A stretch of 18,780 bases of DNA, taken from a virus. The notes under the pieces were generated by a model. The model worked only from the letters and a program-made list of their open reading frames with translations, did no database searches and was not told the DNA's origin. This document shows, in pieces, positions 11,401-18,262 of the stretch (position 1 is its first letter; each line of letters begins with the position of its first letter). The DNA is taken from the UHGV virus genome UHGV-1706803; one strand, 5' to 3'. A program made the translations under genes and the position numbers.

Positions 11401-12789
11401 ATGGCTACTTGGCAAGGAACAAACGGCGGATTGTTGGCTGGTATCGGCGGCGTCAACTCAAACGCTCCGAGCGTAAATGACATCGGCAATACGCTTCAGC
11501 TTATCAGGCAGAACAATGATATTGAGCGTTCAGGCGCTAACAATGTTGGGCTGACTGCTTTGCAAGGCCTTTCAGGTATTGCGGGGGTGTTTCAGCAGGA
11601 AAAGCAGGCTCAGCGGCAGAAAGAATTTCAGCAGGCATACGCTAATGCTTATGCGTCTGGTGATCGCGGTGCTTTGCGTCAGTTGGCTACTCAATATCCA
11701 GACCAGATTGAATCCGTTCGTAAAGGCATGGGATTCATTGATGAAGACCAGCGTAATTCTATCGGCACCTTAGCGGCTGGCGCACGCCTTGCGTCATCGT
11801 CTCCAGAAGCAATGCAATCATGGCTGCAAAACAACGCCAAGGAACTGACTCGCGTCGGTGTTTACCCTAACAGCGTTGCTCAGATGTATCAGCAGAATCC
11901 TTCAGGATTTGGTGAGTTTGTTGATCACCTTGGGATGGCTGCTCTTGGTCCGATTGATTACTTCAATGTTCAGGACAAGATGGCTGGTCGTGAAATTGAC
12001 CGAGGCAGGCTGGCAGAGACAATCCGCAGCAATCAGGCTGGCGAGGCACTAACAGCACGAGGTCAGAACATCACGATGCGCGGTCAGGACTTATCTGCTT
12101 CTACTGCGCGACGAGGTCAGGATTTGGCAATGCAGCGAGCGTCAACAAGACGAATCGCTGGGAATGATGAGCGTACAGTTCAGTTATCAGATGGCAGAAC
12201 TGTAACGGTAGGCGGGAAGCTTCACGGCGCTGGAGCTAATGCGTTCTACGAAGGCATCGACAACGAGGGGAATATGGTTCGCGTTCCTGCCAGTTCAATC
12301 GCAGCGCCTGCAACATCGTCTGCATCAGCACAAAACTATGCCATGAAGAAGGATATCGACGCGATCGCAAATGCAGACGCTTCTGCTCTCGATTTCATGA
12401 CAGGAATGACAGGCGGTGCAGGTAATCCAGCAATTGGTGCTGATGTTCGCAGCCGATTAACAGGAAAAGAGCAGCGCCAGTTATATAACTCAGCACAACG
12501 TATTCAGGGCAGAATGCAGAATCAGGGTGTGGCGGCAGCAAGGGACATGGGTGCCAGTGGTATTAACACCGTTGCAGAAGCGAAGATGTATTTTCAGGGG
12601 ATGCCGCAGGTTGACTATTCAAGCCCGGAGGCTATGCAGCAGTCGATTCGTGAGATTCAGGAATACACCAACAATTACAACCAACAATATAACGTTAATG
12701 TTGGTAAATCTCAGCGGCAGCAATCTCAACCTGCACAGGTATCACAGCCAGCAGCCAGCAGTAACTTTTCTTCACTATGGGGTGATTAA
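11401..12789 (+). CDS. 20: Ejection protein gp20-like, 462 aa
   Basis: Position and size (P22 gp20 about 471 aa); low-complexity Q/A/G-rich composition. Confidence 0.85.
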
Positions 12790-14786
12790 TGGCTAAAGCA
12801 TGGAAAGATGTTATCGCCTCCCCACAGTATCAGGCGTTAGCACCAGAACAAAAAGCGCAGGCTCAGGAGCAATACTTCAATGAAGTCGTGGCCCCGCAAG
12901 CCGGAGAAAATGCAGAGCAGGCTAAGCAAGCTTTCTATGCTGCCTATCCATTGCCATCTGTGCAGCCAGTGGAGACACAACAACCAGTAGCACAGCAACA
13001 ACCACAGCAAAGTGGATTTATGTCTGATCTTGGTGAAGCAGTAAAAGAGACTGGTCGTGGACTGGTGCAGGCTGGCGTGAACGTGGCAAACATACCTGCA
13101 TCAGTTGCCGATGCTGTAACAAGCGCGGCGGCTTGGGCTGGCGGTAAACTCGGCATCGGCGATGGTACATATCAACCAGCACCACGAGTAACAACGCAGG
13201 GATTAGAGCAGGACTTTGGCCTTCAGCAAGGTGCGCTGACTCCACAAACGACAGAGGGAAGGGTATTTGCTGAAGCATTGCCTTACCTCACTCCTGCTGG
13301 CGTTGAGAGAGCGGCGGTACAGGCACCAACACTTGCTGGTCGAATTGCTCAGGGGGCAACTCGCCTTCTAGCAGAAAACGCAGTTGGATCACTTGCTGCA
13401 AATAGTGCGAAAGATGATGCGGAAGCACTCGCCACCGATTTAGGCGTTGGTGTACTTGCTGGCGGTGCTATTAACGCTGCCGGGCGTGGATTAGGTGCTG
13501 CTTATCGTGGCGTTCGTGGTGCTATTGCGCCAGAAGCGCAGCAGGCTATCAGATTTGCAGAGCGTGAAGGTGTTCCTCTGCACACCACAGACCTGTTACA
13601 ACCCACTTCCCGCGTCGGAAAAATGGCGCAAACGACAGCAGAAAATATCCCCCTGGCTGGCACAAGCGGAATGAGAGCAACGCAACAGGAAGCGAGAAGC
13701 CAGTTGGTGCAGAGATTTGCTGATAAATTCGGTGAGTATGATCCAGCGGTTGTTATTGACAGCCTTAAAGCGAAAACATCAGGAATTCGTCGCGCTGCAG
13801 GAAATCGACTGGAGCAGGTTCAGAATGCTATGGCGGGAATAAACATTCAGCCTGCAAGAGCAATTCAGCAGATTGATACAGAAATATCTAACCTGCAGAA
13901 GCTTGGTAAGGTTGCTGATAACGAGACTATTTCAAAACTTCAGTCCTATCGTGATGAGCTTGTTCGCAATGCTGGTCCTGATGGTCCGGTCAATCTGGAT
14001 TTGAAGCAATTAAGCGATCTGCGCAGCCAGTTCAGAATGGACGTGAAGGGTGAGCGACCAGTGTTACCAAACCGTTCCGATGCTGCCATTCAGCGAGTTT
14101 ACAAGGCGATGACCGACGATATCAATGGTGCCATTGGTCAGAATCTTGGCAATGATACTCTTCGTAAATATCAGCAGGCCAATGCCGTCTACGCTGACGA
14201 AGCGGCGAAACTAAAGAATACCAGGCTGAAGAATGTTCTCATGAAAGGCGACCTGACGCCGGAAGTTGTCAACAACATGCTATTCAGCAAGAACAAATCG
14301 GAAATTAAGACTCTGTATAACTCAGTTGGTCGTGTTGGCAGGGCGCAAATGCGCAATGGCATCATTGGAAAGGCGATGGAGAAATCAGGTGGTTCCCCTG
14401 ACCAGTTCCTTCGGCAGCTTAATATCCTGCAAAACCAGACTGGCATCACATTTAAAGGTCAGGAAGCCGCTTATCTGAAAGGATTGAAAAACTACCTGCA
14501 ATCCACGCAGCAGGCTGCAAAAGCGGCAGTAACAACACCAACAGGGCAGCAAACCATCCCGTTCATTATCGGGTATGGGACGGCAATGAACCCGGCGACA
14601 ACTGGCGCAGCGGTAAGCTACGGACTTCTTACTCGCGCCTATGAGAGCGAGCCATTCAGAAATGCAATGCTCCGAATGGCAAACACCCCACGCGGATCAA
14701 CAGCGTTTGAGAAAGCCATGCAGCAGGCGCAAAAGGCCATTAACGCCCTGACTCAAGGTGCCAAGTCTGATGCGTTGTCAGAATAG
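12789..14786 (+). CDS. 16: Ejection protein gp16-like, 665 aa
   Basis: Position; start overlaps the gp20 stop (TAATG). Longer than P22 gp16 (about 609 aa as recalled), with a Q-rich N-terminal segment. Confidence 0.85.
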   Translation: MAKAWKDVIASPQYQALAPEQKAQAQEQYFNEVVAPQAGENAEQAKQAFYAAYPLPSVQPVETQQPVAQQQPQQSGFMSDLGEAVKETGRGLVQAGVNVANIPASVADAVTSAAAWAGGKLGIGDGTYQPAPRVTTQGLEQDFGLQQGALTPQTTEGRVFAEALPYLTPAGVERAAVQAPTLAGRIAQGATRLLAENAVGSLAANSAKDDAEALATDLGVGVLAGGAINAAGRGLGAAYRGVRGAIAPEAQQAIRFAEREGVPLHTTDLLQPTSRVGKMAQTTAENIPLAGTSGMRATQQEARSQLVQRFADKFGEYDPAVVIDSLKAKTSGIRRAAGNRLEQVQNAMAGINIQPARAIQQIDTEISNLQKLGKVADNETISKLQSYRDELVRNAGPDGPVNLDLKQLSDLRSQFRMDVKGERPVLPNRSDAAIQRVYKAMTDDINGAIGQNLGNDTLRKYQQANAVYADEAAKLKNTRLKNVLMKGDLTPEVVNNMLFSKNKSEIKTLYNSVGRVGRAQMRNGIIGKAMEKSGGSPDQFLRQLNILQNQTGITFKGQEAAYLKGLKNYLQSTQQAAKAAVTTPTGQQTIPFIIGYGTAMNPATTGAAVSYGLLTRAYESEPFRNAMLRMANTPRGSTAFEKAMQQAQKAINALTQGAKSDALSE

Positions 14787-14875
14787 CTTCGCAAACACCA
14801 GGAACGTGCAAAAACCAAATATGTAGAACGCAATATTCAGCATATCTCTTTGCATAAATCCTCCGTAACTGATAG

Positions 14876-15136
14876 TTAGCTGCTGTCTTTTTTATATAGC
14901 TCTTTGAGCGTATCAAAGACAATTTTCTTAACCATATCAGATTGTTGTTCTGCCATACGCTCTGCATCGTCAATGTAAACTGATGCAGAGCTTTGTTTAG
15001 CCAATTATTCTTCAATCGCTGCAATTATCTCTGAGTTCAGAGACCTGTTATTCATCTTCGCACGCTGTTTAATTTTCGCGTGGAGTTCATGCGGAAGTCT
15101 TAAGTGAAACTGCGCCTCGTCGTATTTGCTGTACAT
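14876..15136 (-). pseudogene. mnt: Mnt-like ribbon-helix-helix repressor gene interrupted by an in-frame TAA (43-codon N-terminal RHH, then stop, then 42 in-frame codons matching the Mnt C-terminal domain)
   Basis: Minus-strand translation from ATG at 15136: MYSKYDEAQFHLRLPHELHAKIKQRAKMNNRSLNSEIIAAIEE, then TAA (15005-15007), then LAKQSSASVYIDDAERMAEQQSDMVKKIVFDTLKELYKKDSS and a final stop at 14876-14878. The N-terminus carries the Arc/Mnt signature (QF.LR.P ... NGRS.NSE) and the C-terminus closely resembles P22 Mnt (...AERLADEQSELVKKMVFDTLKDLYKKTT, recalled). GAGG lies 8 nt upstream of the ATG. Confidence 0.75.
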
Positions 15137-15209
15137 CCTTGATGCCTCACCAGTTGGGTGGAATGGCATCGTAACCTACTGGATAAATACTCAATAGTAC
15201 CATTTCGGT

Positions 15210-15232
15210 ATGCAATCACATCATGGTTGCAT
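15210..15232. promoter_or_regulatory. Candidate operator: inverted repeat ATGCAA-N11-TTGCAT in the mnt-tailspike intergenic region
   Basis: 6-bp perfect inverted arms read from the sequence, about 26 bp upstream of the tailspike start and inside the 121-bp divergent region. Assignment as an Mnt operator is inference only. Confidence 0.25.
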
Positions 15233-15257
15233 CATATCATTCGTCTGGAGCAATGAA

Positions 15258-17120
15258 ATGTCAGATATCACCGCAAATGTTGTGGTAAGCATGCCTTCGC
15301 AACTCTTCACTATGGCTCGTTCTTTTAAAGCCGTAGCCAATGGCAAAATTTATATCGGTAAAATTGACACTGACCCGGTAAATCCTGAAAACCAGATTCA
15401 GGTTTATGTAGAGAACGAAGACGGCTCTCACGTTCCTGTATCGCAACCAATCATCATTAACGCTGCTGGATATCCGGTATATAACGGACAGATTGCCAAG
15501 TTCGTAACTGTACAGGGCCATTCTATGGCTGTTTATGATGCGTATGGTGCACAGCAGTTTTATTTTCCTAATGTGCTGAAGTATGACCCAGATCAACTCG
15601 AACAGCGACTTTCGTCAAATACTGGCGCATCTTTGATAGGAACCGAATCAGGAAAAACAGTCCAGGAAGAGATAGATAATATCAAGAATGAGGGTTTATT
15701 TACCGAATTTGATAATTTTTCTGACGCAAAGGCGGCGGAGATACAAAACAGAACAATTAGTATAAAATTCAAGTATGGGACAATTAATTATATTAGAAAT
15801 AATACTACAGGGACGGCATCAAGCGGAGACGCTTATGAATTCTTTGATGCCAGTGGTAACGGTTATATCATAGACGAAAAGCAACTAACGAAAAACACAT
15901 CTGGATTGATAAGTCACACGGAGATTTGGGCAGGAGAGGATCTTGATCCAACATATCTTAATAAGGCAAAAGACCTTGGTATAAGTACTTTTGTTGCGTA
16001 TACGTGGAAAGGTAATGCGTACTCATATCATGAGCACTTCCTTGATTTATGTCAGTTATACGGCATTGACGTTATTTTGCAGGCGGTTCCTAATCAACAA
16101 TACACGACAGATCTTGATGCGGATTTTTCATGGCTATCTTCGCTATTTACCCACCCGGCAGTTATTGGTCTATATCTGCTAGATGAACCTGATTTAACAC
16201 TCTACCCGTTAACCCGTCAGGGACAGATCATAGACAAGGCACGCACAATTTCGACATTGCCCCTTTATGCTGCAACTAATGCAGAAGCCAATGGAGAGGC
16301 ATTGCCTCTTCATATGAATTTTGATTACATATTTGCGTCGAACTATGGTCACTTTATCGGTGGTATTGGTATACGAAGATATTCTGCAACAACATGGGCC
16401 TCATTTGAAGAGGAGGGCTTAAGGAAGGGGCGGGTTATTCCACTTTTAACTGCATACTGGTATGAGAACGAAACTCCAACATTAAATACGGCACAGATCA
16501 GAGACGTAAACGATTATTTATCCAGGTCATATAGCAGGCTTGGCATGTGGCAGTTTTGGGGTAATAGAAGTGTAGAAGATGGATATCACTATATTGAAAA
16601 TGATGCTCAGATTTACGATTTGGTTAAAAGCTCTATCGCGTTACGGAAAGGTTTGGTGAAAAAGCCGTCCTTAGTAAGGACTTTTTTTAGAGCCGCATCA
16701 TTACCAGCAAATTGCTACAAGTATCTAACCAAACCAGCGTATCCAGCTAACATCCCTTGGTTAGACCCCTCATCCGCATCAACATGGAATGAGGCGGCGG
16801 TTCTGCGCATCAAGGCTGGAGAGAGATTTGTTGTAAACTTTGGCTCTCCAGTTAAATTAGAGTCAGTAGTTATGACGTTAAAGGACAATAACGGATTGTC
16901 TAATACTGCAACGTTAGCTCTCATCTATAACCCTCTTGTTAGTGGGGGCCAGCAGCATGCAACAACAAAAACCTTAACTGGCGGCGGGGCGCTTGAGTGG
17001 ATTTTCCCTGGAGATGGAACCCCTTCGCACTTGGTCACTACCATTGGGATAAAATGCCTTCGTAGCACAGGAACAGACTACCTCATTGTTGAGCGACTGG
17101 GCTTTGCAATTACGGGCTAA
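15258..17120 (+). CDS. 9: Tailspike protein: P22 gp9-like N-terminal head-binding domain fused to a divergent receptor-binding / putative glycanase domain, 620 aa
   Basis: ATG at 15258 with GGAG 7 nt upstream. The N-terminal 115 aa or so ([59 protein letters not shown]...NVLKYDPDQ) are the conserved P22-family head-binding domain. The remainder is AT-rich and unlike the P22 beta-helix; it includes an LLDEPD motif and alternating hydrophobic strand/helix patterns suggestive of a TIM-barrel hydrolase. Confidence 0.85.
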
Positions 17121-17221: not shown

Positions 17222-18262
17222 ATGAAAAACAGAAACATACAGATGCTGAGAGGGGTTTCTATAATCCTCGTCCTCATTGCTCATGCAGATACAGTGTATT
17301 GGGAAGAATTGAAAAGTATAAAAAAATATATAGACCCAACCATTGGTGTGGATTTGTTTTTTATAATTTCTGGTTATCTAATGGGGGCAACCTTCATCAG
17401 AAAGGTATTATTTGACATTAACCTTAAACACACCATTTCATTTTATATCAAAAGGCTAAACAGGCTTTTCGTTCCGTGCCTATTCTGGTCTTTCATTGTA
17501 TTTGCTCTATTTGACTACTGGCACCTTGCCGGTTTTATAAAAACGCAAGAACAGGCTTTTAAGATATTTATATCTTCAGCGACATTTACTGGTAATATAT
17601 ATAATAGCATCAAGCCTAGTGGCTTCGGGTACTTCTGGTCATTAGGTGTTGAGTTCCAGTTTTATCTAATACTTCCGCTTATTCTATTAATATGCAAAGA
17701 CATGAAGTCATTAATTATCCTGCTTGTCATAATGCTTGGCTTCTACACCTGTGTTTTGAGTTTATTCCCTGAGTCATGGCAATACAGAGCAAATGCACTT
17801 TATATCGGACTTTTGATTTGGTGCGTTACTCAGAGTGAAGGCTATCACGAAATCAAGAAATCTATAAATAATAACGGATGTGTATATATTTGTTTTATCG
17901 TCGGCGCACTCATTCTTGCTGCCTTATGCTTATCCCCTGCATTATATAAAGTGCACGGAGTTAGCTTTACGGCTATATCTATTTTATTGGGATTGGCCTT
18001 CTTTATTTGTGTATGCATGGACAAACCAATAGCTGCATTTATATCAAAACCAATTGAGTTTATTGGTGATATATCTTTTTCCTTATACCTGTGCAACATT
18101 CCTGTTTATATTTTTGTGTCGAGAGAAATGTTTACGCGCGGAATGGGAAAGCCGGAAACTATGATTGTTTCTGTCGTATTAAGTATTGCGGTTGCAACTG
18201 CAAGCCGTTACACATTAGAAAAAATAGATTTTATAAAGTTAAATAAAAATCTAGTTAGGTGA
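17222..18262 (+). CDS. Integral-membrane acyltransferase family 3 protein, probable O-antigen O-acetyltransferase (Oac/OafA-like lysogenic conversion gene), 346 aa
   Basis: N-terminal MLRGVSIILVLIAHA and GVDLFFIISGYLMG motifs are characteristic of the acyltransferase_3 family; multiple hydrophobic helices; AT-rich composition; location downstream of the tailspike, as for oac in Sf6. Confidence 0.85.
   Translation: MKNRNIQMLRGVSIILVLIAHADTVYWEELKSIKKYIDPTIGVDLFFIISGYLMGATFIRKVLFDINLKHTISFYIKRLNRLFVPCLFWSFIVFALFDYWHLAGFIKTQEQAFKIFISSATFTGNIYNSIKPSGFGYFWSLGVEFQFYLILPLILLICKDMKSLIILLVIMLGFYTCVLSLFPESWQYRANALYIGLLIWCVTQSEGYHEIKKSINNNGCVYICFIVGALILAALCLSPALYKVHGVSFTAISILLGLAFFICVCMDKPIAAFISKPIEFIGDISFSLYLCNIPVYIFVSREMFTRGMGKPETMIVSVVLSIAVATASRYTLEKIDFIKLNKNLVR

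Follow-up and report, generated by a model that had tools for sequence, protein, structure and literature searches.

An orphan mnt cassette facing the tailspike gene of a P22-like prophage, its candidate operator and its possible role

The gene 16-tailspike junction

We examined the junction between the gene-16 homologue and the tailspike gene in UHGV-1706803, a virus genome of 18,780 nucleotides (the window, used here for the whole stretch of DNA analyzed) that represents the late region of a P22-like (Lederbergvirus) prophage of the E. coli type. In P22, the interval between gene 16 and gene 9 holds sieA, orf59a, mnt, arc, sar and ant. The window has a single gene between positions 14787 and 15257, a homologue of mnt on the minus strand (14876-15136), which is divergent from the tailspike gene, with 121 bp between the two ATG codons. 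A preliminary description of this sequence had pictured an immI region stripped of sieA, arc and ant, in which only a broken mnt is left and shares its control region with the leader of the tailspike gene. The coordinates, the translation and the searches reported here bear this picture out, and its account of the P22 interval was confirmed with the gene content given above.

The whole window was searched with tblastn. P22 SieA, orf59a, Arc and Ant, CUS-3 Ant, and JEP4 KilA and Rha gave no match with E < 0.2 anywhere in it; Mnt alone matched (E = 3e-25). For the antirepressor queries (P22 Ant, CUS-3 Ant, and JEP4 KilA and Rha) nothing was found in the window under E 0.4, and for Arc the tblastn value was E = 8, with no Arc-like small open reading frame in the window. 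The preliminary description had allowed for an overlooked intact ant or arc, and these searches found neither. No Rfam family, sar included, reached its gathering score anywhere in the window, and a tRNA scan of it was also empty. The interval is an immI, or ant-moron, remnant in which mnt is the one gene left, an mnt-only variant of the ant moron of P22-like phages.

The limits of the cassette were drawn from comparison with Sf6, HK620 and CUS-3. The final late-operon gene ahead of it is the gene-16 homologue (12789-14786, plus strand), an open reading frame for a DNA ejection protein whose relatives are annotated as DNA transfer protein or P22-gp16 family ejection protein. The 70 nt that follow (14787-14856, plus strand) are 94% identical to the start of the Sf6 13-14 intergenic region, which has no moron, and this piece of backbone marks the left edge of the cassette. 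Similarity to Sf6 resumes at about 15242. By this comparison the insert, at roughly 14857-15242, is a compact mnt cassette of about 385 bp placed within a gene-16/tailspike junction of the Sf6 type. The minus strand of 14787-14856 could form a long imperfect hairpin (GCAAAGAGAUAUG...CAUAUUUGGUUUUUGC), which is non-canonical as a terminator and folds at the level of shuffled sequence.

On the right, the tailspike gene (15258-17120, plus strand) encodes 620 aa, with a Pfam Head_binding domain at residues 1-113 (E = 2e-67). Its conserved head-binding N-terminus matches P22-like tailspikes, and its receptor-binding part is divergent. The Shine-Dalgarno sequence, as read off the plus strand, is GGAG at 15247-15250, 7 nt 5' of the ATG, and the CTGGAGCAA motif found there is kept in all P22-like relatives compared. 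Longer reading frames are available for both genes: an in-frame ATG at 15210 yields a spurious 636-aa tailspike, and an upstream ATG at 15169 yields a 54-aa mnt product, the long form being the one annotated in Sf101. We preferred the short starts because conserved regulatory elements lie within the extensions.

The mnt homologue comprises 86 codons and is a pseudogene. Its translation reads MYSKYDEAQFHLRLPHELHAKIKQRAKMNNRSLNSEIIAAIEE, then a stop, then LAKQ...KKDSS and the terminal stop. Alignment with relatives places the premature stop, TAA, at codon 44 (15005-15007, minus strand); it differs by one substitution from the TCA (Ser44) of E. coli ET665, E. coli W and phage Sf101, a change from G to T at 15006 on the plus strand. 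The intact 86-aa gene (WP_000287053.1) is uninterrupted in these three and in phage IME10. Its product matches the Pfam families Arc (PF03869, E = 7.5e-15) and Repressor_Mnt (PF11423, E = 3e-14), and the structures matched were 1MNT (E = 3e-19) and 1QEY (E = 2e-8). The translatable product of the window, 43 aa in length, matches PF03869 only (E = 2e-12, model positions 3-40 of 50), which identifies it as a ribbon-helix-helix (RHH) protein. The tetramerization coil (PF11423, 1QEY) corresponds to residues 56-84 of the intact relative and lies, in the window, downstream of the codon-44 TAA; the gene is still a member of the Mnt family, and the C-terminal coiled coil of that family is missing from its translated product. 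The alignment with Arc extends to residue 49, so that the fragment stops short of the last RHH residues. Gln9 and Arg13 are in register between Mnt and Arc, and the N-terminal lengths are equal.

In the collections searched, the stop codon is private to the window. The allele was present in none of the 255 E. coli genomes that carry this mnt class (best match 98.8%, 1 mismatch in 81 nt) and had no exact match in IMG/VR. Independent null alleles occur elsewhere, one with Ser32 changed to stop in an IMG/VR contig (L045) and one with Tyr5 changed to stop in a Citrobacter prophage; loss of mnt is therefore survivable, and it is tolerable because no antirepressor is present to be unleashed. Dimeric N-terminal fragments of Mnt bind the operator far more weakly than the tetramer does. 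The change of Ser44 to stop removes the end of helix B and the entire tetramerization domain, and judging from the truncation the repressor of the window is almost certainly inactive.

Distribution of orphan mnt and the selection acting on it

The mnt class of the window was found in 255 of 5426 complete E. coli genomes as well as in phages Sf101 and IME10, and was intact in all of them; the whole 851-bp query around the cassette was found in 141 of the 5426. IMG/VR contained at least 228 relatives, and the spacer facing the tailspike gene was exactly 121 bp long in 66 of 76 fetched loci. We sorted about 230 fetched Mnt genes by recognition strand into three classes. Class A, to which the window belongs, has QFHLRL followed by P, T or S (84 loci); class B, exemplified by Gally and ST160, has QFNLRLP (63 loci); and class C, exemplified by P22, has HFNFRMP (80 loci). 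In the loci inspected, mnt of classes A and B is an orphan facing the tailspike gene, and mnt of class C is mostly followed by arc. The preliminary description had given the recognition strands as QFHLRLP here, HFNFRMP in P22 Mnt and QFNLRWP in Arc, and all three readings were correct. Arc of P22 has the same RHH fold as Mnt, and class B Mnt has the Q-N-R recognition residues of Arc; Arc differs in having no tetramerization coil and in its 21-bp operator, which lies between the -35 and -10 elements of the ant promoter (Pant).

Such arrangements are not new. Published accounts of "mnt-only ant morons" cover ST64T, ST104 and Para1 (PMC2629481) as well as phage L (PMC8022706). The layout is thus known and common and is no novelty of the window, in which only the broken mnt is private; what the window adds is a further Mnt specificity class within the published arrangement.

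The ratio of nonsynonymous to synonymous polymorphism (pN/pS) was 0.14 in class A, falling to 0.036 within the DNA-binding N-domain, and 0.12 in both class B and class C, the P22 type that still controls ant. Diversity in the 121-bp spacer was 0.0135, threefold lower than the 0.040 found at four-fold degenerate sites of the same loci. These comparisons indicate that purifying selection maintains intact orphan mnt and its control region despite the loss of the known Mnt target. They also bear on the view, improbable to us, that a deleted immI has left behind a cassette without function both here and in relatives. The authors of the phage L genome raise the possibility of decay (PMC8022706), and the mnt of the window is indeed broken, as are the two other independent nonsense alleles. 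Decay, however, would not predict a pN/pS equal to that of functional P22 mnt, a spacer three times less diverse than four-fold degenerate sites, arms of the candidate operator (O2, below) that are invariant across genera, or the retention of this mnt class in 255 E. coli genomes, none with the stop allele of the window.

The first 45 codons of mnt and the operator region of VSe13 (L004) and phage JEP4 (L086) are near-identical to those of the window (15005-15136 compared). The C-terminal half of their Mnt differs (...SKPSPVRGYRDEEERLASLISEQVKEVAADILRKEKTRS), which indicates a recombination joint between the segments for the DNA-binding and tetramerization domains.

Operator, promoters and hairpins in the 121-bp spacer

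The best candidate for an Mnt operator, O2, is AGTACCATTTCGGTATG at 15196-15212 (either strand), with arms TACC-N5-GGTA at 15198-15210. It is the positional homologue of the P22 mnt operator, Omnt: the annotated P22 operator comes after the motif CTCAATA (...CTCAATAGGTCCACGGTGGACCTGTAT), and O2 aligns with it directly 3' of the shared CAATA. At this position class C has GGTCCAC-N-GTGGACC, class B has CAATAAGACCAC-N-GTGGTCT (left arm AGACCAC, central base free) and class A, in the window, has CAATAGTACCATTTCGGTATG. Across the three classes the arms change with the recognition strand, and the CC-N5-GG core and its position are constant. Within class A the TACC/GGTA arms are invariant from E. coli to Buttiauxella and Serratia, the ends of the spacer between them vary (A/G and C/A/T), and in the Buttiauxella locus O2 is a perfect palindrome, GTACC-ATTTT-GGTAC. 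Five loci obtained from a scan of genome contigs contributed most to the analysis of covariation. By comparison, then, O2 behaves as a repressor/operator specificity module, and the cassette appears to have what is expected of the Mnt family, a palindromic operator beside the repressor's own promoter and matched to its recognition strand. The preliminary description had anticipated an operator specificity different from that of P22, and the shift of the palindrome with the recognition strand agrees with this.

Neither the window nor the Sf101 genome contains a second copy of O2, and the class B operator likewise occurs once in the ST160 genome. Among the IMG/VR matches listed for the class A operator pattern (at least 120), 98 were in the same context and 22 were unrelated hits in coding sequence; none of the matches listed had an ant gene beside it. 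We considered trans-immunity, in which orphan Mnt would repress the ant of incoming phages, and rejected it, as no ant-linked operator of class A or B was present in the approximately 230 Mnt loci or among the IMG/VR matches listed. In one IMG/VR contig (L348, an IMGVR_UViG entry), the sequence after the GGTATG of the O2 homologue changes to TGGATTTGCCCCTATATTTCCAGACATCTG..., which we take to resemble the end of IS2; it would be an insertion parting mnt from the tailspike gene.

A simple consensus scan saw no convincing promoter pair in the spacer, and a position-weight scan was built for this reason; it recovered the annotated P22 Pant (16.0 bits) and mnt promoter (Pmnt, 13.6 bits). The predicted Pmnt of the window is at 15168-15194 on the minus strand, with a -35 element TTGAGT (15194-15189), a 15-nt spacer and a -10 element TACGAT (15173-15168). 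It scores 8.0 bits, a level reached by about 1.1 sites per kb, and its place is homologous to that of P22 Pmnt. Leftward promoters were predicted at this place in every orphan type scanned, with scores of 9.8 bits in ST160, 11.0 in Gally and 8.5 in VSe13. Assuming the usual 7-nt distance between the -10 element and the start site, O2 is centered about 43-45 bp from the Pmnt start, on its upstream side, in the window as in ST160 and P22. In the rightward direction, no promoter in the spacer of the window rose above background (best score 6.2 bits, with about 4 such sites per kb); the hexamers homologous to those of Pant are GAATGG and TAAATA, and the strong Pant of a complete immI, which overlaps Pmnt, is missing. 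From these positions we infer that the retained module consists of Pmnt, the operator and mnt, and that Pant has been lost. A second leftward promoter-like site (15236-15264, minus strand, CTGACA-17-AATGAT) overlaps the tailspike start codon; it scores 8.1 bits, on a par with the predicted Pmnt, and is confined to the E. coli-type leader.

The preliminary description had put forward a different candidate operator, the inverted repeat ATGCAA-N11-TTGCAT at 15210-15232, and with it repressor control of tailspike expression. On this model Mnt or its fragment would bind the repeat and silence a spacer promoter from which the tailspike gene is transcribed. The repeat exists and extends to 9-nt arms, ATGCAATCA and TGGTTGCAT, which are 8/9 complementary and 5 nt apart. 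By our estimate a repeat of this quality is expected by chance about 0.1-0.4 times per 121 bp, and its reality therefore rests on comparative data and not on its presence alone. Read as plus-sense RNA, it is a hairpin, H2 (AUGCAAUCA-CAUCA-UGGUUGCAU), with 9 pairs including one U.G pair, so that the stem is perfect only in that sense. H2 ends 26 nt 5' of the tailspike ATG. In P22-type phages, Sf6 and BTP1, hairpins unrelated in sequence end 20-27 nt upstream of the corresponding codon, and H2, which is plus-sense and ends within this range, falls among what we define here as the tailspike-leader hairpins of P22-like phages (a class of this analysis, not a curated family). The P22-type member, CCGUAGC-NNN-GCUGCGG, is 94.9% paired over 31 variants, with many wobbles and two double changes, and that of Sf6 has a folding energy of -22.8 kcal/mol. 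Energy alone would have revealed nothing: relative to shuffled sequence, z was -0.39 for the tailspike leader, -1.36 for the mnt leader and -0.12 for the region after mnt.

Several observations are consistent with the proposed repression of a tailspike promoter from this repeat. The repeat is real and close to the tailspike ATG, its left arm abuts O2, and in Escherichia sp. E1V33 it is diverged and maintained with one compensatory change, from G-C to U-A. It is absent, however, from VSe13, JEP4 and the Buttiauxella, Serratia and Citrobacter prophages, which have an identical recognition strand and a near-identical 15137-15212 region. The U.G wobbles function only in plus-sense RNA, the scan that gave P22 Pant 16 bits found no rightward promoter in the orphan arrangement, and the 43-aa fragment has no tetramerization domain. 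Because the P22 hairpin is 1.4 kb from Omnt, and because Sf6 and BTP1 have the hairpin without mnt, H2 belongs to the tailspike leader and not to the repressor system; its role is perhaps in the stability or processing of the message. It thus seems very unlikely that Mnt represses a tailspike promoter from 15210-15232. The broader expectation of Mnt control over the tailspike fared in part better: a candidate operator, O2, does lie in the tailspike leader, and with no rightward promoter found there, only a roadblock to late read-through would be possible.

The most conserved element of the spacer is neither of these. An inverted-repeat search and comparison identified H1, a 30-bp imperfect palindrome or hairpin at 15141-15170 on the plus strand (GATGCC UCACC AGUUG GGUGG AAU GGCAUC), which overlaps the -10 element and start site of the predicted Pmnt and the mnt Shine-Dalgarno sequence. 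H1 is common to Mnt classes A and B and absent in P22, and is the least diverse part of the intergenic region (nucleotide diversity, pi, 0.0089). Its plus-sense fold is more stable than the minus-sense fold in 17 of 18 variants, and 97.2% of cells pair in the plus sense. The loop is hypervariable; in the stem, the Gally, Serratia and Buttiauxella types differ by substitutions that are compensatory or give wobble pairs. H1 may act as RNA, by folding within the plus-sense late transcript, or as DNA, as a palindromic protein-binding site at Pmnt. Two other roles were considered and set aside. The inner CACC-N5-GGTG (15148-15160) shares ACC-N5-GGT with O2 and might have been a second Mnt operator; the shared pattern has 6 occurrences in the window, 2 within the spacer. 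As the main reading this was rejected because the class B H1 has no copy of the half-sites of the class B operator, and because in Buttiauxella the H1 stem is GTCC/GGAC while QFHLRLP and O2 are kept. A hairpin of the mnt mRNA that hides the Shine-Dalgarno sequence was rejected, as the predicted Pmnt start is inside H1 and the wobbles favor the plus sense.

Taken as a whole, the cassette resembles P22 immI in its location between gene 16 and gene 9, in its Mnt (49% identical, with the same RHH and tetramerization architecture), and in having Pmnt at a homologous place and a palindromic operator after CAATA at the same distance from Pmnt. It differs in lacking arc, sar, ant, sieA, orf59a and Oarc, in the loss of Pant, in its recognition strand (QFHLRLP versus HFNFRMP) and operator arms (TACC/GGTA versus GTCCAC/GTGGAC), in having H1, and in the nonsense mutation of the window. 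Closer to the window are the mnt-only morons of ST64T, ST104, Para1, L, ST160/SE1 and Gally, in which mnt is the sole immI gene and is divergent from the tailspike gene, 135-146 bp from its ATG, with an H1-type palindrome, Pmnt and a single operator in the same order. These have a class B Mnt (QFNLRLP), the operator AGACCAC-N-GTGGTCT and usually an extra small open reading frame between gene 16 and mnt, whereas the window is of class A, has no extra reading frame, and has another leader hairpin and a 15-nt rather than 17-nt Pmnt spacer. Essentially the same cassette as in the window is found in Sf101, IME10 and prophages of E. coli W, ET665 and other strains (97-99% identity over mnt and the start of the tailspike gene, with an identical 121-bp spacer). 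Those genomes differ from it in their intact 86-aa mnt, which is mis-annotated in Sf101 as 'partition protein ATPase' with a longer start, and in their tailspike receptor-binding domains and downstream O-antigen genes.

Possible roles of the orphan repressor

We consider it reasonably probable that the cassette is a minimal, autoregulated mnt unit that stayed behind at, or was transferred to, the gene-16/tailspike junction without its former target, that the tailspike gene is expressed by late read-through, and that the copy in the window is dead. In intact relatives the product of the cassette is a genuine Mnt-family repressor with an N-terminal RHH domain and a C-terminal tetramerization coil; mnt would be transcribed leftward from Pmnt, and Mnt would bind a single operator, O2. 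Pant, which Mnt represses in P22, appears to have been lost along with arc, sar and ant. The tailspike gene is most likely transcribed solely by read-through from the late operon across the antisense mnt, and its leader bears the position-conserved plus-sense hairpin H2. For orphan Mnt, the most likely role would be autoregulation of Pmnt from O2. Any effect on the tailspike would be only indirect, by a protein roadblock or by convergent transcription, 54 bp 5' of the tailspike ATG.

Several points weigh against this interpretation. Pure autoregulation offers no selective reason for the cassette to persist, yet purifying selection is clear, so that the real target or benefit is missing from the account. 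H1, the most conserved element of the spacer and specific to the orphan classes, is left unexplained by autoregulation. The promoters and the binding were all assigned in silico, and the Pmnt of the window has an unusual 15-nt spacer and only 8 bits. The spacer may contain a weak or non-consensus rightward promoter, and rare further targets of O2 could exist beyond the IMG/VR matches listed. The stop codon might in principle be a sequencing error.

In an alternative reading, which we regard as rather unlikely, Mnt made by the prophage sits on O2, possibly on H1 too, and hinders late polymerases from reaching the tailspike gene. The consequence would be to tune tailspike dosage after induction or to disable superinfecting relatives that share the operator. 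The phage genome has no operator other than O2, which late transcription must cross 54 bp ahead of the tailspike ATG, and purifying selection demands some function for orphan mnt. The idea also echoes the epsilon34 paper, which remarks that the P22 ant moron influences the frequency with which late polymerases arrive at the tailspike gene, with a possible part for Mnt and Arc (PMC2629481). The same junction in BTP1 is spanned by a prophage antisense RNA that excludes superinfecting BTP1 (PMC7067206). Against this, the prophage would hinder its own tailspike after induction, and mnt null alleles recur without obvious compensation. Antiterminated late polymerases, moreover, are usually hard to block. 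On balance, it seems rather unlikely that orphan Mnt is a maintained regulator that acts from O2, perhaps with H1, to gate tailspike read-through or to act against superinfecting relatives. If it were, it would be the protein counterpart of the BTP1 exclusion RNA, STnc6030, at the same junction, and the window would be a natural null mutant of the gate.

STnc6030 suggests a further alternative, in which the selected product is the leftward Pmnt transcript itself, running antisense into the 3' end of gene 16, and Mnt only regulates its promoter. The likeness is that STnc6030 is a leftward transcript expressed by the prophage over the gene-16/tailspike junction of a P22-like phage (PMC7067206), with escape mutations at the 3' end of the gene-16 homologue (PMC7067206). 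No intrinsic terminator was predicted between the mnt stop and gene 16, and Pmnt is conserved in all orphan classes. BTP1, however, has no mnt, 155 bp between the two genes and no sequence relation to the cassette, and STnc6030 is a non-coding RNA that starts inside the tailspike gene (PMC7067206), which argues that the two are not homologous. The pN/pS of 0.036 in the DNA-binding domain shows that the protein itself matters, and shuffled sequence folds as well as the region after mnt. We give the antisense transcript little credence as the selected product.

The window itself carries little weight, being a published and common ant-moron variant with a private pseudogene repressor. The interest lies in its intact relatives. 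The purpose of orphan mnt was left open by the authors of the phage L study (PMC8022706). Orphan mnt is under purifying selection at the level of P22 mnt and has kept a predicted promoter and matched candidate operator, while the promoter known to be repressed by Mnt is lost, and the role of Mnt without Ant thereby becomes a well-posed and testable question. The three natural repressor/operator classes, which differ at recognition position 1 (H/Q) and position 3 (N/H), form a data set for the rules of RHH recognition, and the comparison exposes two conserved plus-sense hairpins, H1 and H2, in the tailspike leader.

The surroundings of the cassette vary among relatives. In the window, an acyltransferase gene (Acyl_transf_3, 17222-18262, plus strand, GC content about 0.35) lies downstream of the tailspike gene on the same strand as the late operon, and transcription leaving the tailspike gene could continue into this lysogenic-conversion gene; the O-acetyltransferase of E. 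coli W and Sf101 is encoded in the opposite orientation. In E. coli SCPM-O-B-8794 (L239), in loci L062, L071 and L077, and in E. coli 23CRST042 (H33), the tailspike frame is broken after its fifth codon (ATGTCAGATATCACC/TACCATGATT...) by about 0.6 kb encoding a 179-aa protein, an HNH endonuclease in RefSeq, after which a second complete tailspike start follows; this looks like the insertion of a homing endonuclease at the start of the tailspike gene.

In JEP4 the leader and initial codons of a P22-type tailspike (ATGACAGATATTATAAATAGG) are retained, and an AT-rich stretch of about 190 bp separates them from a tailspike whose N-terminus is unrelated (MNRRLFFKT...); genes for Rha and KilA, with a C2-like repressor, are on the other side of mnt. 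CUS-3 (L236, 2953-3991) has two tandem mnt-like genes, one of the P22 type without its own operator region and the other for a different RHH repressor (QVNLRLP) that faces a TTGACT/TACTAT promoter with repeated ATGCGTACC boxes. Upstream of CUS-3 ant there is also an unannotated small RHH reading frame (MKVKTLRMPEKLEKILEEKAKEE...), which could be the 'missing' arc noted previously (PMC2629481).

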